From Deltaproteobacteria bacterium (GTDB lineage: Bacteria; Desulfobacterota; Desulfuromonadia; Desulfuromonadales; Geothermobacteraceae), in the NCBI GenBank assembly GCA_003695205.1, contig RFIO01000174.1:1-41852 (forward strand): DNA of 41,852 bases, in the 5' to 3' direction. This document shows positions 10,948 through 38,221 of the stretch, piece by piece. How positions within the stretch are numbered: the stretch's first letter is position 1; each line of letters starts with the position of its first letter. Both the position numbers and the translations under genes were made by a program. Below the pieces are notes generated by a model that worked only from the letters and a program-made list of their open reading frames with translations, was not told where the DNA came from and ran no database searches.

Positions 10948-11576
10948 CGATTGCGGGTGTCATTTTTGACTGTGACGGTGTCCTGTTCGAGAGTCGCAGG
11001 GCCAACCTGGCCTACTACAACGCCATTCTCGCCCGCTTCGATCTTCCGCCGGTCACCGAGGATCAGCCTGACAAGGCGCAGCTGTGTCACACCGCCGACA
11101 GCCGTACCGTGCTGACCAGCCTGTTGGAACCCGGCCTGGCGGAACGGGCGCTGGAGATTGCCGCCGGGCTTGACTACCGGCAGTTCCTTCCATTCATGGA
11201 CCCTGAACCCGGGATGATCGAGGGGTTGCGGCGCCTGAGCAGTGCATGGCCGCTGGCAGTTGCTACCAACCGCGGCAACAGCATGACGGACATACTGCAT
11301 CATTTCGGCCTGGCTGAATGTTTCAGTGCTGTGGTCACCAGCAGGGATGTCGCCCGTCCCAAGCCGGCGCCCGACATGCTTTTCAAGGCTGCGCAGAGCC
11401 TGGAGATCGATTCTTCCCAGCTGGTTTTTGTCGGTGACTCGGAGCTGGATCGCCAGGCCGCCGACGCGGCCGGCATTCGGTTTGTTGCCTATGGCGAGAG
11501 GGTGTCCGGAGACTGGCAGGTTCGGTCTCACGGTGAGCTGGAACAGCTGCTGGCGCTTGTCAGTTCAGATCCTTGA
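10944..11576 (+). CDS. HAD-family hydrolase (phosphoglycolate phosphatase-like)
   Basis: FDCDGVL motif I, VATNR, KPAP, FVGDS..D; ATGA overlap with lgt. Confidence 0.88.
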   Translation: MTIAGVIFDCDGVLFESRRANLAYYNAILARFDLPPVTEDQPDKAQLCHTADSRTVLTSLLEPGLAERALEIAAGLDYRQFLPFMDPEPGMIEGLRRLSSAWPLAVATNRGNSMTDILHHFGLAECFSAVVTSRDVARPKPAPDMLFKAAQSLEIDSSQLVFVGDSELDRQAADAAGIRFVAYGERVSGDWQVRSHGELEQLLALVSSDP

Positions 11577-11979
11577 TCATTTCAAGCACGTGCCCCGAAT
11601 CGGTCTGGCGATATTCGACGCTGTCCATCAGGGATCGGATAATGTAGACCCCGCGGCCGTGCTCGTCGAGGGATCGGAACTCGGGGCTTGAGCGGTCCTT
11701 GAAATCGAACCCGGCCCCCTGGTCGAAGACCCGGATTATCAGACGGCCCCGGTCGACGCTGATCGATACCCGGATCTCCTTGTCCGGATCATCTTCGTTG
11801 GCGTGTCGGATGGCGTTGGTAATGGCCTCGGTCAACACTAGGTTGACATGGTAGGCCAGTTCCTCGCGGTCGCCCCTGTACCCCCTGAGGGTGTGGGCCA
11901 CATCCTCTCCAACCCGGCCGATCAGTCCGAGATAGCGGGTCTGGTTGGGAACCCTGATGTCGATATCCAGCTTTTCCAT
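11560..11979 (-). CDS. RsbW-like anti-sigma factor / Ser kinase (HATPase_c_2)
   Basis: LTEAITNAIRHA N-box, DQGAGFD, EHGRGVYIIRSLMD. Confidence 0.88.
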   Translation of the reverse strand: MEKLDIDIRVPNQTRYLGLIGRVGEDVAHTLRGYRGDREELAYHVNLVLTEAITNAIRHANEDDPDKEIRVSISVDRGRLIIRVFDQGAGFDFKDRSSPEFRSLDEHGRGVYIIRSLMDSVEYRQTDSGHVLEMIKDLN

Positions 11980-12024
11980 CTGTCACGGTCGGCCGGAGGC
12001 GGTGTGCCTCCGGCCCGATTCCAG

Positions 12025-12363
12025 TCAACTGAAACTGGCAAGCGCCTCATCGACGTTGGGAAAGATTTCGAACACCCGATGCAGCCGGGTCAGTTCGAAC
12101 ATCGATTTGACCTGGGGCTGCAGGTTGCAGAGCTTCAGGCTGCCGCTGCGCGCGCTGGCGTTCTTGAAGCCCGATACCAGGGCTCCAAGGCCGGAGGAGT
12201 CGACAAAGCGCACCTCCTCAAGATTGACAACCAGGCTGTTCTTGCCTTCCTCGAACAGGTTAAGCATCTGGGTCTTGAGCTCGCCGCTGTTGTGAGCGTC
12301 GAGGCGCTCCTCCTTGACCGTAATCAGGACGGCGGTGTCTTTTTCCTCAATCTGAACGATCAT
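12025..12363 (-). CDS. STAS-domain anti-anti-sigma factor (RsbV-like)
   Basis: RLDAHNS, VRFVDSSGLGALV (phospho-acceptor Ser), FELTRL; AAGGAG RBS before ATG 12363. Confidence 0.9.
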   Translation of the reverse strand: MIVQIEEKDTAVLITVKEERLDAHNSGELKTQMLNLFEEGKNSLVVNLEEVRFVDSSGLGALVSGFKNASARSGSLKLCNLQPQVKSMFELTRLHRVFEIFPNVDEALASFS

Positions 12364-12447
12364 GTGACTGGCTCCTTGGTCTGGTTTGGCCCGTCGGGCG
12401 GGCCGCTTTAGCATAGCATAACTGACCCCGACGACCTCAGGTTCGGG

Positions 12448-15400
12448 TCAGCTTTCCCGTTTCATGACCACCAGGGAAATGTCATCCCTGAAGTTCTGGC
12501 TGCCGGTAAACAGGCGCAACTGCTGCAGCAGCGTCTCGATCAGTTCCTGCGGCTGCAGATGCCTGTTGTCGATGAGCATCTGTACCAGTCTCTCCTCCCC
12601 GAAAAACTCGCCGGCGCGGTTTTCCGCCTCGGTCAGGCCGTCCGTGAACATCAGCAGGACATCGCCAGGCTCAAGTCGGTCGCGACAGCAGTCGAAGGTG
12701 ACTTCCGGGCGCACCCCGAGGATCAGTCCTTCGGCGTCAAGCCGGTCGATCGTGCCGCTGGCGTGCCTGTAGACCAGGGGCGGGTTATGCCCGGCGCTGG
12801 CATAGACAAGGTTTCCCGTTTCGGGCTGGAATCGAATGTAGACCAGGGTGATGAACAGTTCGGCCTGGGTCAGATCGTCGTAGAAGAACCTGTTCAGGGC
12901 ATCCAGAACCTGGTCCGGTGCGTCAAGCTTGCTGGCGCGAGCGCGAATGAAGGTCCGGGTTTCCGCCATGATCAGTGCCGAGCCGACGTTGTGCCCCGAC
13001 ACGTCAGCCACGACAAGATCGAGGTTGCCGTCGGCGCGCTCCAGGTAGTCGTAGTAATCGCCGCCGACCTCACGGGCCGGAACGCACAACCCGGCCAGGG
13101 AAATCCCCTCTATTCTGGGCGTGGCCTGGGGCAGCAGGCTCAACTGGATGGTTTTGGCGATTTCCATCTCCTTTTGCTGTTCCCGGGCGGCGATCAGGTC
13201 GCGGGTCTGCTGGTTGTTGCGCCAGGCGACACCGACCTGGCTGGCGAGGCTGGTGAACAGCTCGACGAATTCTTCGGTGAAGATGCCTCGAACCGATTTG
13301 GAAAATGCTGACAGAACCCCGATCGGTTCCCCCTCCATGGTGATGGGGGCGTGGGCGAAGGAGAGAATCCCTTCGCGATGTACGATCTGGCTGGTTTGCG
13401 GTTTGTCCTTCAGTTCGTCGGTGTCATTGACGACAATGGCCTGGTTGGTCAGGAAGACCTCGCCGATGGTGGTTTCCATGGTCAGTTTGCGAGCCGAGTG
13501 GCCGAAATGCTCCGAGCTCATGCCTTTCTGGCTGCGAACCGTCAGGGTCATGCTGTCCTGGTCCAGCAGGCGGATTACCACCAGATCGAACTTGAACTGC
13601 TGGATCAGCAGTTCGAGGATGTTGTCGAAGATGGTCTGCAGCGGCGCACCGCTGGCCACAACGCGCGCCGCCTCGTACAGGACGGAAAGCTGCTCGCGGC
13701 TTGAGGTGCGGCTCAGGGTGACCGAGCCGAAGATATCGAAAACCTTCTCCATGCGGCTGCCACGGGTCGACAGGTAGTTTTCGACGATGATACTCGCCGC
13801 CGCGGCCCCGACCGAACCGGCGAGGGTGCGTTCGGTAAAGCGCTTCAGGTTGGGCAGTTCGTATTCCGACAGACTGCCGTGCTGGTCGATGGTCGCCTCC
13901 CGGTCGCCCAGATAATCGGCGATGGCGGCATGAGCCTGTTTCTCCCCGATGAACTTGGACATCAGATCGACGAACTCGAGGATGGACGGGGCGCGGCTGA
14001 TGCGCTGGCGCTCCTTGGGCAGCAGGCTGCCGGTATAGACGCCGACAAACTTTTCAGCCTGTTCGCGCTCGCGCTCATCCGGGGCTGTGAGCAGCGACAG
14101 GGTCAGAAAGGCGCCAATGTTGAAAAAGAGGGTCCAGAACAGGGAATGGCTCCAGATGTCGAAACCGCTCAGCCCGAACAGTTCAAGGGGGCGCAGCAGG
14201 CGGATGCCGAACAGGCCTTCTTCAAGGATGGCACTGTGCAGCCAGCCCGAACGGACAAAGGACGGAATGATCAGGGTATAGAACCAGACCAGGAACCCGA
14301 GGATCAGGCCGGTGGCGGCTCCCTTTCGGGTGGCACGCCGCCAGTAGAGGCCGCCGATCAGGCCCGGGGCGAACTGGGTCGCGGCGATGAAGGAGATCAG
14401 TCCCATGTTGACAAGGGCGTAGGATTCGCCAATGGCCCGGTAGAAGAGGTATCCGAGAAAAACGACAACGAAGATGGCCAGGCGCTTCAGGTTGAGCAGG
14501 ATGAGATAATAGTTGTCGACGACGATGCGGAATTTCAGGATCAGCGGCGTAATCAGCTGGTTGAGAACCATGGTGGCCAGAGCGACCGAGGAGATCATCA
14601 CCATCCCGGCCGCGGCCGACAGGCCGCCGACAAAGGCGAACATGCCAAGCCAGTAGTGTCCGGTCTGCATCGGCAGGGACAGTACGAAGTAATCGGCCTG
14701 ACTGGTGTCTCCGCCGTTGAGCAGCAGGCCGCCCAGGGCGACGGGGAGGACGAACAGATTGATGGCGAAGGCGTACAGGGGAAAGCGCCACATGGCCTGG
14801 CGGATATGACTTTCATCCGAGTTTTCGATGACCATGATGTGAAACTGGCGAGGCAGGAACATGAAGGCCATCATCGAGATGAAGGTAAGGCTGAACCAGG
14901 TGATATAGGGGATCTGTTCGGTGTCGATCAGCAGCAGATGGATCCGTTCAGGAAAATCATGAAGGAATTGACCGAAAATATCTGTGAACCCGTCGAAAAG
15001 GCCATAGGTCACAAAAAGGCCGACGGCGAGAAAGGCGACCAGCTTGATGATCGATTCCAGGGCGATGGCTGCGACCATGCCTTCGTGGCGTTCCGAAGCG
15101 TCGAGGTTTCGGGCTCCGAACAGCACCCCGAACAGGGCAAGAGTCAGGGCGATGATGAAGGCGGTGTCGAGGGTTTGCGGCAGCTGTGGCAGATAGTGAC
15201 CGAGCCCTTCACTGCGTTGCGGAGGCGGCAGGGTGAGCAGATCAAAGGTCTGGGAGACCGCCTTGAGCTGCAGGGCAATGTAGGGCATGATGCCGACCAC
15301 CGAAAAGATGGTGACCAGCCCACCCATGTAGGCCGATTTGCCGTAGCGGCTGGAGACGAAGTCGGCGATGGTGGTGATGTTCTGTTCCTTGCTGATCCGC

Positions 15401-15672
15401 ACCATGCGTCGCAGCAGGAACCACCAGGCAAAGGCAATCAGCGTCGGGCCCAGGTAGATGGTGAGGAAGTCGAGGCCGATGGTGGCGGCGCGGCCGACCG
15501 AACCGTAGAAGGTCCAGGACGTGCAGTAGACTGCCAGCGACAGGGAGTAGATGGTCGGATTGGAAATCAGGCTTTTGCCCTGTTCGTGTTTCCGGTCGGC
15601 GTAATAGGCGACCAGAAACAGCAGCCCCAGATATCCCAGGGTGACCAGTGCGACCAGCTTGACCGAAATCAT
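12448..15672 (-). CDS. SLC5/SSS transporter-like sensor - STAC - GAF - PP2C (SpoIIE/RsbU) phosphatase fusion
   Basis: aa ~1-530 polytopic with CbrA/CrbS-type motifs (YSLSLAVYCTSWTFYGSVG, IADFVSSRYGKS, PYIALQLKA, LPRQFH..VIEN); aa ~563-633 STAC-like (FIGEKQA...ERTLAGSVGAAAA); aa ~660-820 GAF; C-terminal PP2C with GGDYYD, ADVSGH, FTDGLTE, DDIS. Confidence 0.88.
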   Translation of the reverse strand: MISVKLVALVTLGYLGLLFLVAYYADRKHEQGKSLISNPTIYSLSLAVYCTSWTFYGSVGRAATIGLDFLTIYLGPTLIAFAWWFLLRRMVRISKEQNITTIADFVSSRYGKSAYMGGLVTIFSVVGIMPYIALQLKAVSQTFDLLTLPPPQRSEGLGHYLPQLPQTLDTAFIIALTLALFGVLFGARNLDASERHEGMVAAIALESIIKLVAFLAVGLFVTYGLFDGFTDIFGQFLHDFPERIHLLLIDTEQIPYITWFSLTFISMMAFMFLPRQFHIMVIENSDESHIRQAMWRFPLYAFAINLFVLPVALGGLLLNGGDTSQADYFVLSLPMQTGHYWLGMFAFVGGLSAAAGMVMISSVALATMVLNQLITPLILKFRIVVDNYYLILLNLKRLAIFVVVFLGYLFYRAIGESYALVNMGLISFIAATQFAPGLIGGLYWRRATRKGAATGLILGFLVWFYTLIIPSFVRSGWLHSAILEEGLFGIRLLRPLELFGLSGFDIWSHSLFWTLFFNIGAFLTLSLLTAPDEREREQAEKFVGVYTGSLLPKERQRISRAPSILEFVDLMSKFIGEKQAHAAIADYLGDREATIDQHGSLSEYELPNLKRFTERTLAGSVGAAAASIIVENYLSTRGSRMEKVFDIFGSVTLSRTSSREQLSVLYEAARVVASGAPLQTIFDNILELLIQQFKFDLVVIRLLDQDSMTLTVRSQKGMSSEHFGHSARKLTMETTIGEVFLTNQAIVVNDTDELKDKPQTSQIVHREGILSFAHAPITMEGEPIGVLSAFSKSVRGIFTEEFVELFTSLASQVGVAWRNNQQTRDLIAAREQQKEMEIAKTIQLSLLPQATPRIEGISLAGLCVPAREVGGDYYDYLERADGNLDLVVADVSGHNVGSALIMAETRTFIRARASKLDAPDQVLDALNRFFYDDLTQAELFITLVYIRFQPETGNLVYASAGHNPPLVYRHASGTIDRLDAEGLILGVRPEVTFDCCRDRLEPGDVLLMFTDGLTEAENRAGEFFGEERLVQMLIDNRHLQPQELIETLLQQLRLFTGSQNFRDDISLVVMKRES

Positions 15673-15920
15673 GGAGCGCCGCGGTCCCGTCTTCCGGTGT
15701 CGTCGTCACTGCGGCCGAGCTGCAGGGAAAAGAACCAGATGATCAGGATGGAGACGGGCCACCCCACCAGCAGATAGAGCACCAGCACAGGGATGCCCAG
15801 AAGGGTGTCTGCCTTGTTGAAGATATGGATGAAGGGATAGTTGAGCATGATGCAGCCCAGCAGGAAACAGAGAATCCAGGCTTCGCGCAGACGGTGAGGT
15901 TCAGTCGGTTTCATGCTCAT
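15669..15920 (-). CDS. Small two-TM membrane protein, putative SSS accessory subunit
   Basis: Two hydrophobic segments (AWILCFLLGCIMLNYPF; LLGIPVLVLYLLVGWPVSILIIWFF); ATGA overlap with the sensor start. Start is 15920 or 15914. Confidence 0.75.
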   Translation of the reverse strand: MSMKPTEPHRLREAWILCFLLGCIMLNYPFIHIFNKADTLLGIPVLVLYLLVGWPVSILIIWFFSLQLGRSDDDTGRRDRGAP

Positions 15921-16122: not shown

Positions 16123-17841
16123 ATGCCTCGAAATCGGCTCTGCAATATCTTGCTGCTTGTCATTCTGGCTGCCGGAATTTCAGGTTGTCTGTCCCCCCCG
16201 CGCGGGGCCGCGCCGGGGAGCGTCGAACGCCCGGTCGCCAGCCGGGACCCGGGCAGCGAGGCCCTCTACCATTTTGCCCGTGCCCAGATGCTGATGCAGG
16301 ACCAGCGCTACGCCGAGGCGGCTGCCGCCCTCGAGCGGGCCAGGGAGTTTGATCCCCGCTCCGACAAGCTCAGGCTGGCCACAGGGCAGCTGCGACTGCG
16401 CATGAAGGATGTTGACGGTGCCGCCCATGCAGTCGAAGAGGCACTGATCGAAAACCCGGATTTCGTTGAGGGGCATCTCTTTCTAGGGGGGCTCTACTTT
16501 AACCGCGGGGACTATGCCGGAGCTGTCGGCCATTTTCAGGAGGTGCTGCGCCTCGACCCTGAACGGGATGCCGTCTGGCTGCACCTTGGCATGAGCCATG
16601 CCCGGTTGAATCAGCACGACAGGGCCATCGAAGCCTTTCGGACCTTTGTCGAACGCCGGCCCGAATCGGTGGCCGGATGGGCCCAGCTGGCCCGCTCCTG
16701 CCAGCTGGTCGGGGATGGCGCATGTGCTGAAGAGTCTTACCGGCGCATCATCGAACTGCAGCCGGACCAGCCCGGGGGGTACGTCGAGCTGGCGCAGTTG
16801 CTGGTCGAACAGGGGGATCCTGTTCGGGCCGAAGAGGTCCTGCGCCTTGGAATCGGGCGGTCCGGACAGGCCGGCCTGTTGCGGCATGATCTGGTCGGCG
16901 TTCTGGTGCGGCAGAAGAAATTCGACGAGGCGATGGCGGTCCTTGAGCTGCTCAGGGATGCGAACCCGGATGACCTCGAGGCGCGGCGCAAAATTGGCCT
17001 GCTTCTGATGGAGAAGGGCGATTTTGCCGGTGCCGCGGAGATGTTCGAGGCCATTCTCGATCAGAAACCGGATCTTGACCGTGTGCGTTATTTCCTGGGG
17101 TTGGCTCTTGAGCGGCTTGAAAGCTGGGAGGATGCGCTTGAGGCTTTCAGCCAGGTGCCCCCCGGTGGAGAACTGGGCATGGATGCCGGCTACCACAGGG
17201 CCTTCGTACTGCAACAGCTGGACCGTCTGGACGAGGCGGCTGATGCCCTGAAGGAAGTGCTTGACCGGGGAGCGCAGCGGCCCGACATCTATGACTATCT
17301 CGCTGCCCTTTACGACCAGCTGGGCAAGATGGATCTTGCCCTCGATATTCTCAGGCAGGGTTACGCCCGGTTCCCCGAGGATATCGACCTGCTTTACCGC
17401 CAGGGGGTCGTCTACGAACGTAACGGCATGCGCAAGCTGGCCGTCGGTATCATGCGGCAGGTGCTGGAACGGGACCCGGAGCATCCCGAGGCGCTCAACC
17501 ATGTCGCCTACGGCTATGCCGAGGAGGGCACCAACCTGGAGCAGGCGCTCGAAATGGTCAACAGGGCGCTGGCCAGGCGCCAGGCCCCGCATATCTACGA
17601 TACCCTCGGCTGGGTTCTTTTCCGTCTGGGGCGGTACCCTGAGGCGCACGCCGCGATGGAAAAGGCGGCCGAAGGTCTGCCCTCCGATCCGGTGGTACTC
17701 GATCATTTTGCCCGGGTAAAACAGGCAATGGGGCAGGACGAAAAGGCGCGGGATCTGTGGTTGCAGATTCTCGAAATCGATCCCGAATACCTGCCGGCTC
17801 GTCAAGCTCTGGGCTCGCCCGAGGGTGGTGGCGCACAATGA
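16123..17841 (+). CDS. Tetratricopeptide-repeat lipoprotein
   Basis: Signal peptide with lipobox ISGC; many TPR units; C-terminal ALNHVAYGYAE...YDTLGWVLFRLG...DHF typical of exported TPR proteins. Confidence 0.88.
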   Translation: MPRNRLCNILLLVILAAGISGCLSPPRGAAPGSVERPVASRDPGSEALYHFARAQMLMQDQRYAEAAAALERAREFDPRSDKLRLATGQLRLRMKDVDGAAHAVEEALIENPDFVEGHLFLGGLYFNRGDYAGAVGHFQEVLRLDPERDAVWLHLGMSHARLNQHDRAIEAFRTFVERRPESVAGWAQLARSCQLVGDGACAEESYRRIIELQPDQPGGYVELAQLLVEQGDPVRAEEVLRLGIGRSGQAGLLRHDLVGVLVRQKKFDEAMAVLELLRDANPDDLEARRKIGLLLMEKGDFAGAAEMFEAILDQKPDLDRVRYFLGLALERLESWEDALEAFSQVPPGGELGMDAGYHRAFVLQQLDRLDEAADALKEVLDRGAQRPDIYDYLAALYDQLGKMDLALDILRQGYARFPEDIDLLYRQGVVYERNGMRKLAVGIMRQVLERDPEHPEALNHVAYGYAEEGTNLEQALEMVNRALARRQAPHIYDTLGWVLFRLGRYPEAHAAMEKAAEGLPSDPVVLDHFARVKQAMGQDEKARDLWLQILEIDPEYLPARQALGSPEGGGAQ

Positions 17842-18590
17842 GATGGATGTGGCTCTTTCTGTTGATTGCGGCCTGCGCTCCGGTCGCGGCCCCGCGACAG
17901 AGGGTCGAGGTTGATCCGGAGCTGTTGCTTCAGGCGCTGACGCGCGCGACCGGGCAGGCTGAGCGGCTGCGGGGGCTGGCCGTGGTTAGCATCAAGTCTC
18001 CGGAAGGTGATTTTCGCGGTCGCCAGGCTCTGGTGGCCGCCCGTCCGGATCGACTCAGGGCTGAAGCTTTGAGTATGTTCGGCCCGCCTCTGATGGTGGT
18101 CGCAACCGACGGTGAACGCCTGCAGGCCTGGTTGCCAGGGCAGAACCGTTTTTATTTCGGTCGTGCCGACGGTAATGGCCTCAGCCGCGTTCTGCGCCTG
18201 CAGGCTACGCCTCGGCAGCTTGTCGCACTGGTGCATCATGCTCCGGGGTACGATAACGCCGATTGGCGCGCGTACCGGGAAACATTTGGTTTTCGCCTGC
18301 TCTCCGACAGGGATGGACTGGCCCGTTCCCTGCTGTTTGACGACCGGATGCGCCTGGTCGGGCTGGAGGTTGAAGCTGAAGGTGCTATCCTGATGAAGGC
18401 GGCCTGGAGCCGCTTTGATGAACAGGACGGTTTTCCCCGCGACCTGACTCTCGAATGGCCGGGCACCGGCAGAAGCCTGCGATTGAGCTTCAAGACCCTG
18501 GAGTTGAATCCTGAGATTCCGGATGGGCTGTTCCAGCTCACTCCGCCCGCCGGGTCGTCCCTCTACCTCATCGACGGAGATGATACATGA
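17838..18590 (+). CDS. Lipoprotein with probable LolA/LolB-like fold (DUF4292-like)
   Basis: MRWMWLFLLIAAC lipobox; RPDRLRAEALSMFG, TDGERL and C-terminal LNPEIPDGLFQLTPPAG recall Lol-fold proteins; ATGA overlap with the TPR gene. Confidence 0.6.
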   Translation: MRWMWLFLLIAACAPVAAPRQRVEVDPELLLQALTRATGQAERLRGLAVVSIKSPEGDFRGRQALVAARPDRLRAEALSMFGPPLMVVATDGERLQAWLPGQNRFYFGRADGNGLSRVLRLQATPRQLVALVHHAPGYDNADWRAYRETFGFRLLSDRDGLARSLLFDDRMRLVGLEVEAEGAILMKAAWSRFDEQDGFPRDLTLEWPGTGRSLRLSFKTLELNPEIPDGLFQLTPPAGSSLYLIDGDDT

Positions 18591-25920: not shown

Positions 25921-25949
25921 AGCCTACCCTGAATGGGTACCGGCCGCAA
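25921..25949 (-). promoter_or_regulatory. Putative sigma70 promoter of the FKBP gene
   Basis: TTGCGG-17 bp-TAGGCT. Confidence 0.4.
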
Positions 25950-25955
25950 GCGCAC

Positions 25956-25990
25956 AAAAAAAGCGGGCTCCGGCAGAGACCGGAGCCCGC
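25956..25990 (-). terminator. Intrinsic terminator after the fumarase gene
   Basis: GCGGGCTCCGG/CCGGAGCCCGC stem followed by T7 on the minus strand. Confidence 0.85.
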
Positions 25991-26013
25991 GCTGGTTGAT
26001 GAATGAATTCGCC

Positions 26014-27636
<1,623 letters not shown>

Positions 27637-27699
27637 GATCATCTCTCCTTTTCGATCAGATCGGGGAGGGCCTGTTCGCCATCCCATTGCAACCCCGGC

Positions 27700-27728
27700 A
27701 TTATAGGAAGAATGGTATACGCTTGCAA
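27700..27728 (-). promoter_or_regulatory. Sigma70 promoter of the fumarase gene
   Basis: TTGCAA-17 bp-TATAAT on the minus strand. Confidence 0.7.
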
Positions 27729-27827
27729 AGTTAAAAACGGTTTCATCTCGCTGCATCCGATTCGGCTTTGTTTTGCCAACAGGGTCGGTTTTGGTTAAGG
27801 TGTTTGCTGGTTTGCCAGGAGGGTGCC

Positions 27828-37058: not shown

Positions 37059-37805
37059 TTACCGTTCCGGCTTGCGAGCTGACAGGAAGGTCCAGTTTTC
37101 CAGGAATGACGGCACGGCCACCTGCTGTTCCCTGATGTCGGTAAAATGTCGTGCCGCCTCGGCGCGAATCTCCCGCAGCAGTTCACCGCTTTCCCTTGCC
37201 AGATCGGCATTGCCTTCCCCCTCGCCACAGCACTGCATGCTGAAAACCCCTCCCGGTTTCAGGGCTCTGGCTATATGTGCCATGGTTTCGGCCATGAAGG
37301 CCTCGCGGCTCTGACCGGAGCGTATCGGGTCCATGGTCAAATCGTAAATGACGCCATCCAGATCGCGTGCCCCGGCAATCCATGCGAAGGCGTCACCGGT
37401 GACAATTTCAGCGCGGGGATGTTCCCTGACATCTCCGGCCAGCTTCGGCAGGTACCTCCGGCACAGGCGCAGGACTTCGGGGTCGATATCGATCTGCCAG
37501 GCTTTTTCAAGAGGCAGGCCGATACGTTCGCAGGATCGGATCAATTCCCACAGAACGCCGCCGTCACCGCCACCGAGGATGGCAACCCGGCCGGTGGCAC
37601 CGTGCCTGAGCAGAGGCGCCACCATGGCGCTTCCATAGATGCTGTCGCTTTCGGATATCTGCAGGTCGCCATCAATGACCAGCTGGCAACCGAAGATGGA
37701 GTGGCGGGTAATTTCGATGCACTGGTAATTGCTGATGGCCGAGGCAATGATTTCCGCCTGCAGGTGGCTGGCGAATTCGGGGTTGCGTTGATCCTTCGTC
37801 AGCAT
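37059..37805 (-). CDS. Polyamine aminopropyltransferase (spermidine/spermine synthase family)
   Basis: SNYQ...IDGDLQISESD, ILGGGDGG, DID, GDA, IYDLT, LKPGG, VPSFLENWTF. Confidence 0.82.
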   Translation of the reverse strand: MLTKDQRNPEFASHLQAEIIASAISNYQCIEITRHSIFGCQLVIDGDLQISESDSIYGSAMVAPLLRHGATGRVAILGGGDGGVLWELIRSCERIGLPLEKAWQIDIDPEVLRLCRRYLPKLAGDVREHPRAEIVTGDAFAWIAGARDLDGVIYDLTMDPIRSGQSREAFMAETMAHIARALKPGGVFSMQCCGEGEGNADLARESGELLREIRAEAARHFTDIREQQVAVPSFLENWTFLSARKPER

Positions 37806-37823
37806 GGTTTGTCGCACACCAGG

Positions 37824-37862
37824 AAAAAACAAAAGGCGGGTACCCCGTGGGTATCCGCCTTT
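37824..37862 (-). terminator. Intrinsic terminator after the PxxKW gene
   Basis: AAAGGCGGATACCC/GGGTACCCGCCTTTT followed by GTTTTTT on the minus strand. Confidence 0.75.
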
Positions 37863-37883
37863 CGTGATTGTCGCGTTCGGGGA

Positions 37884-38162
37884 TTACTTGCCGCCGCGCT
37901 TGGAAGCCTTGAGCGGGTTGATACGCTGCTCGACCACCTTCTTCTCCACCTTCTGGTGCGTGGCGAAGTTGCAGATGGTTACGGCCCATTTCTGCGCCGG
38001 GGAGGGGGCGACGGAGCAGACCTTGCCGATCTTGCTCTCGATGATGCGTTCGCAGCCCTCGCACTGCTCAACGATCGGCTGGCAGGAATTGCCCTCGTAA
38101 ACACAGCCGTTCTTGCTCCAGAAGGTGCACTCGACACCGGGCTGTACTGTCTGACACTGCAT
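37884..38162 (-). CDS. PxxKW-family cysteine-rich protein
   Basis: 8 Cys, PAQKW motif, CNFATH, basic tail INPLKASKR; AAGGAGA RBS. Confidence 0.85.
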   Translation of the reverse strand: MQCQTVQPGVECTFWSKNGCVYEGNSCQPIVEQCEGCERIIESKIGKVCSVAPSPAQKWAVTICNFATHQKVEKKVVEQRINPLKASKRGGK

Positions 38163-38221
38163 GATGACAAATCTCCTTGAAGATTCGGTTATGATTCAGC
38201 GGTTCAACTCAAAGACCACAC

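Follow-up and report, generated by a model that had tools for sequence, protein, structure and literature searches.

How can a transporter-like membrane domain be made to control a serine/threonine phosphatase? The question is raised by a block of four genes in contig RFIO01000174.1 (GenBank assembly GCA_003695205.1), from a deltaproteobacterium assigned to Geothermobacteraceae. The whole stretch analysed, 41,852 nucleotides (nt) long, is called the window here; its closest named relatives were Geothermobacter records, at 75-89% identity, which places it in class Desulfuromonadia. The original prediction read the block as an undescribed system in which an SLC5-STAC sensor is wired to a PP2C/RsbV/RsbW partner switch. 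Our analysis showed that the block is real and present class-wide, and that its known parts make up a signalling system which appears to be uncharacterised. Judged from its sequence, it would work like a CbrA/CrbS sensor connected to a phospho-switch of the RsbU/V/W type, with a canonical anti-sigma role only putative.

The four genes and their products

The block had been described as four co-oriented genes, and this was borne out: all four open reading frames (ORFs) lay at the expected span on the minus strand. Its features were the following.

15669..15920, minus strand: gene for a peptide of 83 amino acids (aa) with two transmembrane (TM) segments, from the ORF list
12448..15672, minus strand: SLC5-STAC-GAF-PP2C fusion gene, 1074 aa, a transceptor-type Ser/Thr phosphatase
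14086..15663, minus strand: SLC5 domain of the fusion, 13 TM segments, aa 4-529, mapped through the CbrA alignment
13765..13983, minus strand: STAC four-helix bundle, aa 564-636, from the model and the CbrA STAC alignment
13225..13644, minus strand: GAF domain of the fusion, aa 677-816, from Pfam
12457..13122, minus strand: PP2C/SpoIIE phosphatase domain, aa 851-1072, with all four metal-binding Asp motifs
12410..12418, minus strand: extended -10 promoter-like motif TGCTATGCT, 5' of rsbV, a predicted internal promoter
12025..12363, minus strand: RsbV-like STAS gene, 112 aa from the likely start, DSSG with Ser56; the ORF reaches 12414
11991..12015, minus strand: GC-rich 10-bp hairpin in the rsbV-rsbW spacer, lineage-specific
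11560..11979, minus strand: RsbW-type GHKL Ser kinase gene, 139 aa, with N, G1 and G2 boxes

The peptide and fusion genes overlapped by ATGA. The STAS ORF extended from 12025 to 12414, and the start of the gene was corrected. The most likely start is ATG 12363, which would make the phospho-site Ser56, because the orthologues are mostly 111-113 aa long and a strong Shine-Dalgarno sequence precedes 12363.

In the fusion protein, Pfam recognised SSF (residues 47-136), GAF (677-816) and SpoIIE (881-1072), and the C-terminal part showed GAF and SpoIIE with no HisKA or HATPase. Residues 5-637 matched the SLC5-STAC chain of CbrA solved by cryo-electron microscopy (10ed_A, E=2.4e-73), and hydropathy at a threshold of 1.3 gave 13 TM segments. 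STAC itself had no match in Pfam; its assignment came from the CbrA alignment and the AlphaFold2 model (mean predicted local distance difference test 81.8, predicted template modelling score 0.61), in which the four helices spanned 564-575, 577-594, 606-621 and 623-636. Foldseek with this model retrieved SLC5 transporters (NIS, SGLT), PP2C domains and a GAF. The domain calls made at the outset were therefore supported by Pfam, the alignment, the model and the structural search. The GAF domain matched a Geobacter sulfurreducens GAF structure from structural genomics (PDB 2QYB) at E=2.5e-29, and a family member from the other order of the class matched it at E=2e-74.

The catalytic motifs of the phosphatase (GGDYYD 870, ADVSGH 889, TDG 1010, DDISL 1063), the STAS protein (DSSG) and the kinase (EAITNA, DQGAG, GRG) were all intact, in agreement with the earlier account. 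DSSG was present in 102/102 STAS orthologue rows, and its Ser aligned to the position in SpoIIAA at which chain 1tid_B carries a Ser-to-Ala substitution. The kinase G1 box was found in 101/101 rows and the N-box pattern in 94/101; E51, N55, D86, G88 and G90 were invariant in 50 rows. The best PDB match of the kinase was Bacillus RsbW (6m36_A, E=1.4e-13). STAS proteins from outside the class were at most 47% identical. Only one STAS protein and one RsbW of such type were found in the window's genome.

The 83-aa peptide showed two TM segments by hydropathy at the same threshold. DUF3311 matched weakly in 12 of 50 members of the peptide family (best E 5e-4). Neither the single sequence nor a 50-row profile matched the CbrX chain of PDB 10ED at E<=10, and short hydrophobic peptides are easily missed in such searches. 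By position and topology the peptide may be regarded as a DUF3311-like small subunit analogous to CbrX, which binds CbrA (bioRxiv 10.64898/2026.03.10.710862, excerpt). A hairpin peptide was also encoded upstream of an Azoarcus SLC5-STAC protein with an EAL output (locus L120:6724-10120), and this suggested that the peptide family travels with several outputs.

Conservation, natural variants and the SLC5 pocket

The class Desulfuromonadia was surveyed in 150 genomes at least 90% complete (151 in the RsbW, FliA and RpoS counts). The best match to the fusion reached E<=1e-230 in 131 of the 150, and the other 19 gave partial matches only. RsbW was matched in 145/151 genomes, with a single match in every positive but one; the positive in genome G131 was a distant copy at another locus. 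Of 46 GTDB loci fetched, 37 included the phosphatase end and 32 extended at least 1.1 kb downstream, and rsbV-rsbW followed the fusion in 29 of these 32. The same order was seen in 27/27 top genome loci (some genomes were in both sets) and in 27/35 hand-picked regions, where the misses were second copies or copies off the core locus. The synteny survey thus confirmed the co-occurrence of the four genes, and the block is a core locus of the class. It sits between a TPR/peptide-transport cluster and, mostly, lgt in both orders, the second of which we infer to be Geobacterales.

Among 194 genomes of the phylum outside the class, none had a match spanning both SLC5 and PP2C. Many of them carried the same SLC5-STAC-GAF cassette, with the match ending near residue 844, and the scanned representatives had histidine kinase outputs. 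PP2C was matched in 9 cluster representatives out of the best 150, including a Streptomyces SLC5-GAF-PP2C-HATPase protein. Three loci (L111:727-11096, L112:5981-16822, L113:246-7593) encoded SLC5-STAC-GAF-histidine kinases with their own hairpin peptide. Their neighbours were DUF294 nucleotidyltransferases, a HAMP-exonuclease, a lone receiver and an ActP-like symporter with a DUF4212 partner, and a similar set was seen in Paracoccus (L119).

Several lineages had lost parts of the block. In family f14 (8/8 genomes) the peptide and fusion genes were gone with rsbV-rsbW in place; in one member, L134, the absence was judged from the ORF list, which left no room for the fusion. G047 and G063 were similar. 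In G117 and G089 a PP2C-only remnant of 254 and 267 aa, respectively, preceded rsbV, and the peptide was missing together with the membrane domain. These variants suggested that the peptide is tied to the membrane domain and the PP2C to RsbV. In G025 the fusion was the only SpoIIE-domain protein found. The pairing of PP2C with the STAS-kinase pair, as originally proposed, was upheld by the two remnants and by G025.

Extra, stand-alone copies of the fusion nested inside the family in a FastTree tree of 67 rows, which was used for nesting only, its rooting being unreliable owing to the long branches of the outside kinases. They often adjoined catabolic genes (thiolase/enoyl-CoA hydratase, acetyl-CoA transferase, molybdo-hydroxylases, glycerol kinase with a TRAP transporter); L100, L106 and L108 adjoined unrelated genes. 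Two full-length stand-alone genes with different pocket residues stood in tandem in L100:6829-13418. A 1081-aa SLC5-STAC-GAF protein within the family (L110:6540-9785) had a C-terminal part with neither a Pfam match nor PP2C motifs. The fusion gene was split by a frame change near residue 852-856 at a core locus (L077:7295-10544) and near 661-677 in a stand-alone copy (L083:6970-10232); these are real breaks or sequence errors.

The SLC5 pocket of the fusion consisted of Y49, T51, W53, T54, F69, Y73, S266 and F428, with Lys210 at the Na2 site, as in the proton-coupled type. It was mapped through the 10ed_A alignment to CbrA Y51, S53, W55, A56, F71, Y75, F248, F406 and K196. Over ten pocket sites, the substitutions per sequence amounted to 0.26 in 50 core proteins and 2.6 in 12 stand-alone copies, and K210 was kept in 50/50 and 12/12 rows, respectively. 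Left out of the core count were L098 and L114, at the core position with degenerate pockets (Val at the K210 position in L098), and L058 and L077. The motifs YCTSWTF and LPRQFH were common to the fusion and L117, a P. aeruginosa hybrid kinase of CrbS architecture, and absent from CbrA. From its architecture we take L117 to be CrbS/MxtR. In phmmer, L117, L118, L121 and L122, each taken over its own first 660 residues, scored 376-490 bits against the fusion, compared with 250 bits for 10ed_A. The pocket is, by sequence, of CrbS type and near-invariant in the core copies. The shared motifs favoured a small carboxylate over histidine as the ligand.

The identity between the orders was 56% for SLC5, 59% for STAC, 35% for GAF, 48% for PP2C, 65% for RsbV and 56% for RsbW. 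RsbV was therefore the most conserved part of the block, and GAF the least conserved domain of the fusion. That SLC5 and STAC exceeded GAF and PP2C was counted in support of the reading preferred below.

Among known systems, the fusion shares its sensor module with CbrA and CrbS but is the orthologue of neither. It resembles CbrX-CbrA of Pseudomonas (PDB 10ED; bioRxiv 10.64898/2026.03.10.710862) in the 13-TM SLC5 domain with STAC, the Lys at the Na2 site, the aromatic pocket residues and the overlapping upstream gene for a two-helix peptide. It differs in the output, which is PAS-histidine kinase in CbrA and GAF-PP2C here, in the pocket (A56/F248 of CbrA are T54/S266) and in the peptide, for which searches gave no sequence match to CbrX. 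The SLC5-STAC hybrid kinases CrbS/MxtR and RpuS (PMC5715377, PMC9100948, excerpts) share the two motifs, as seen in L117. Unlike the block, they act through a His-Asp relay to a LuxR regulator, and their regulon, for acetate or pyruvate, is known. We found no hairpin gene preceding L117, L118, L121 or L122, and neither acs nor actP was seen beside the core block.

On the switch side, the Bacillus RsbU-RsbV-RsbW-sigmaB and SpoIIE-SpoIIAA-SpoIIAB-sigmaF systems (PMC7340262, excerpt) have the same PPM phosphatase, STAS Ser56 and GHKL kinase with a catalytic Glu. The block differs from them in lacking a cognate sigma gene, in several RsbW-RsbV contact residues and in its transporter-like input. 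The RsbU-RsbV-RsbW-sigma66 switch of Chlamydia (PMC11619594, excerpt) likewise has a membrane phosphatase reported to sense a metabolite and an unlinked output, but its sensor is a periplasmic alpha-ketoglutarate domain instead of SLC5, and its sigma target is known. SypA/SypE, RbaV/RbaW, BtrUVW, HmpUVW (PMC8256260 section 6, excerpt) and SiaABCD are phosphatase-STAS-kinase trios with the STAS protein as output. They use sensors other than SLC5-STAC, and SiaABCD has a known target, the cyclase SiaD, whereas no target gene is linked to the block. The actinobacterial SSS-GAF-PP2C-HATPase proteins (PMC7918813; Streptomyces P0137) have the SLC5-GAF-SpoIIE order in one chain. They carry an extra C-terminal HATPase domain and are known from domain surveys only.

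Some features around the block stood apart from the switch. The rsbW gene and a convergent HAD hydrolase gene overlapped by 17 bases at their 3' ends (window 11560-11576), and no terminator-like site was called there. In the second order and in some other loci, the block was immediately preceded by a gene for a protein of about 530 aa with a C-terminal AAA_33 P-loop domain; in several f14 genomes this gene stood right before rsbV (examples are L077:10783-12366, L087:10523-12118, L058:38-1165 and L127:7389-9134). It was rejected as an obligatory fifth gene, being absent from the window and from many loci. Three long ORFs of the window had no Pfam match at E<=0.001: 25933-27798 (621 aa), 37146-38180 (344 aa) and 17757-18590 on the plus strand (277 aa), the last conserved in relatives beside a TPR gene.

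The output of the switch

The window's genome (84% complete) encodes RpoD, RpoS, RpoH and FliA, and no sigma gene lay within the block. FliA had no match in 34/151 genomes, including the single-contig genomes G022, G034 and G044, in which the fusion and kinase genes stood side by side. FliA/FlgM was therefore rejected as the sole target. In G015 and G025, rpoS-nlpD was deleted between pcm and apt with all four block genes kept. These two clean deletions also rejected RpoS as the sole target; retention of the block as a relic is possible. Both are small genomes (2.3 and 1.8 Mb, loci L156 and L157) rated 100% complete, and G025 had only two sigma-70-type (Sigma70_r2) matches. The rpoS misses in G063, G065 and G075 may be assembly gaps, as apt was also missing. 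A complex prediction for the RsbW dimer with RpoS residues 56-325 scored 0.00 and was counted neither for nor against.

The expression signals pointed to RsbV. The pattern TGnTAnnnT was found 5' of rsbV in 53/97 distinct regions; the reverse strand gave 10, and dinucleotide shuffles gave 10.1 +/- 3.0. Just ahead of the -10 hexamer the base was mixed (C 18, A 14, G 11, T 10 of 53). This suggested a generic extended -10 motif, and an RpoS-type internal promoter was rejected. No sigma-54 motif was found upstream of the peptide gene or rsbW. A strong Shine-Dalgarno sequence preceded rsbV in 96/96 rows and rsbW in 68% of 94; in the window the values were -7.7 and -1.7 kcal/mol, respectively. The 45-nt rsbV-rsbW spacer with its hairpin had -26.3 kcal/mol. 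As a class-wide device this hairpin was rejected, since z<-2 was reached in only 11/60 spacers of at least 20 nt.

In published proteome tables on acetate, the log10 intensity-based absolute quantification (iBAQ) value was 6.95-7.07 for RsbV and 4.64-4.99 for the fusion, GSU1429, of Geobacter sulfurreducens (PMC7894505 supplement 2), which puts RsbV about 100-fold above the phosphatase. In the supplement rows of PMC7894505 and PMC8691401, RpoS stood at 6.0-6.5 and RpoD at 6.5-7.6. RsbV was up about 4.5-fold on formate and the same on acetate and H2 (proteome supplement rows).

Taken together, the loss of FliA and of RpoS with the block kept, the promoter-like site and strong ribosome binding site of rsbV, and the excess of RsbV favoured RsbV as the output. 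We interpreted RsbV, not RsbW, to be probably the effector; RsbW would write its phosphate mark and the fusion would erase it. The proposal that the system toggles RsbW as an anti-sigma factor was weakened by the same losses and abundance and by the lack of a sigma gene in the block.

Mechanism and rival explanations

The reading that we prefer is that PP2C and RsbW set the phosphate at Ser56 of RsbV, that a small solute bound to SLC5 tunes the phosphatase and that the abundant RsbV is the effector. We give it a probability of about 0.5. In such a system the 83-aa hairpin would in all likelihood pack on the SLC5 domain as CbrX does on CbrA. A small organic acid would bind, or be carried with a proton, through the Lys210 pocket; a short carboxylate is the best guess at the ligand, at slightly less than even odds. 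STAC, GAF and the helix before PP2C would relay the signal, and the control of the phosphatase by SLC5 is somewhat favoured. The phosphatase and kinase, whose motifs are present, would very probably erase and write the phosphate at Ser56. Somewhat more likely than not, RsbV, supplied in excess by its own predicted promoter, would act like SypA, RbaV and SiaC and bind a protein downstream in a way that depends on its phosphorylation. Through the stand-alone copies, whose pockets are altered, additional solutes would act on that one RsbV.

A number of observations weigh against this reading. Solute binding or transport as the signal, part of the original prediction, is plausible from the conservation of the pocket. 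On the other hand, a chimera of the CrbS SLC5 domain and the CbrA kinase supported growth on histidine, the Pseudomonas kinases were activated without substrate transport, STAC deletions had little effect (PMC5715377, excerpt), and CbrA without the SSS domain signalled when overexpressed (PMC7918813, excerpt). Acetate, suggested at first, agrees with the CrbS-like pocket. However, insertion mutants grew normally on 20 mM acetate, and the fusion level was unchanged between acetate and H2 or on propionate. Transposon sequencing recovered many insertions in GSU1426, 1427, 1429 and 1430 (14-21 sites/kb), and their log2 ratios stayed within +/-0.45 when the cells had acetate and either fumarate or an electrode. 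Growth does not require CbrX (bioRxiv 10.64898/2026.03.10.710862, excerpt), and 11 of the 12 stand-alone copies counted lacked the peptide gene. Membrane transporter folds are generally conserved, which weakens the argument from SLC5 and STAC identity. RsbW was absent among the rows listed in supplement 2 of PMC7894505 and of PMC8691401, which may reflect poor detection of a small protein. Lastly, whole lineages (f14, G047, G063, G089, G117) dropped the membrane module and kept rsbV-rsbW, and this suggested that the sensor is one detachable input.

The main rival is a canonical switch, in which RsbW is an anti-sigma factor that holds a sigma factor (RpoD as in Chlamydia, RpoS as in Pseudomonas) until unphosphorylated RsbV releases it. 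The closest solved relatives of the two proteins are RsbW/SpoIIAB and RsbV/SpoIIAA, the N-terminal helices of RsbW are conserved class-wide, and RpoS is present in as many genomes as RsbW (145/151). RsbW of Chlamydia binds the housekeeping sigma 66 (PMC11619594, excerpt), HsbR-HsbA of P. aeruginosa regulates RpoS (PMC6482189, excerpt), and no gene loss speaks against RpoD or RpoH, the sequestration of which by RsbW is the form of the rival to be reckoned with. We nevertheless consider it unlikely, given the sigma losses described above, the block without a sigma gene and the apparent scarcity of RsbW, which would hardly suffice to titrate RpoD (at a log iBAQ as high as 7.55); moreover, Arg23, Asp42 and Lys44 of Bacillus RsbW are Gly21 (invariant), His44 and Asn46 in the block kinase.

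The switch may also be real with a cytoplasmic signal: the GAF domain or the energy state would be read, and SLC5-STAC would be an anchor, a dimerisation scaffold or a separate transporter. The chimera and deletion work on CbrA and CrbS (PMC5715377, PMC7918813, PMC9100948, excerpts) suggests this, as do the lineages that kept rsbV-rsbW, and sometimes PP2C, after losing the membrane module, and the constant, low expression of the fusion. The low conservation of GAF across the orders speaks against it, as do a pocket that is near-invariant in core copies and shifts together in stand-alone copies beside catabolic genes, and the reuse of the SLC5-STAC-GAF cassette with histidine kinase outputs elsewhere in the phylum; we regard it as quite improbable. 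That the genes are mere neighbours in a conserved region, the fusion acting on another substrate and other phosphatases serving RsbV, is very improbable. Synteny does extend to the flanking housekeeping genes (TPR, SBP5, lgt), and most genomes checked have other SpoIIE proteins. Against this stand the co-orientation and tight spacing of the genes, the PP2C remnant kept in place, G025 with no other SpoIIE match, and the one STAS protein and one RsbW of the type in the window's genome. In genome G000, contig C445 (4 kb), putatively part of this genome, held the only other PP2C match, 26% identical and with a receiver-like N-terminus.

The claim that the system is undescribed stood for its function but not for its architecture. 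No experimental study of the locus was found in the literature searched, which excludes most subscription journals and bioRxiv supplements. The STAC paper of Korycinski et al. 2015, cited in reference lists, may list PP2C fusions. The UniProt name of GSU1429 already states the architecture, and SSS-GAF-PP2C-HATPase proteins from Actinobacteria are mentioned in a review (PMC7918813 section 5.1.1). A 2009 genome paper has one sentence on the locus, according to which an "anti-anti-sigma factor gene" encoding phosphatase and kinase domains carries frameshifts (PMC2700814, excerpt). The supplement rows of PMC13274346 show no significant change of the four block genes on propionate and name GSU1430 as DUF3311.

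Even CbrA has left open how an SLC5-STAC module links its transporter part to a signalling enzyme, and the fusion family should be easier to read: its signal would be a single phosphoserine, carried by a 12-kDa protein, which can be followed by Phos-tag gel. The system is present in the genetically tractable Geobacter sulfurreducens, with the GAF domain crystallised and RsbV abundant, and the natural variants, which lack the sensor, keep PP2C alone or carry additional copies with a different pocket, are ready-made controls. A wider and tentative idea, which we hold to be doubtful, is a class-wide, sigma-independent carbon-sensing hub, in which a proton-coupled transceptor phosphatase and its stand-alone paralogues, with re-tuned pockets and a place in catabolic gene islands, directly convert transporter occupancy or turnover to the Ser56 state of one abundant STAS protein, itself the effector. 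If true, this transceptor would be the first to have a Ser/Thr phosphatase as its output, and metal-reducing bacteria would possess a nutrient integrator with multiple inputs. Nearly all of this class of acetate-oxidising metal reducers retains the locus, which gives no phenotype in rich laboratory medium; the block may govern behaviour under the nutrient-poor conditions of sediments and electrode biofilms.

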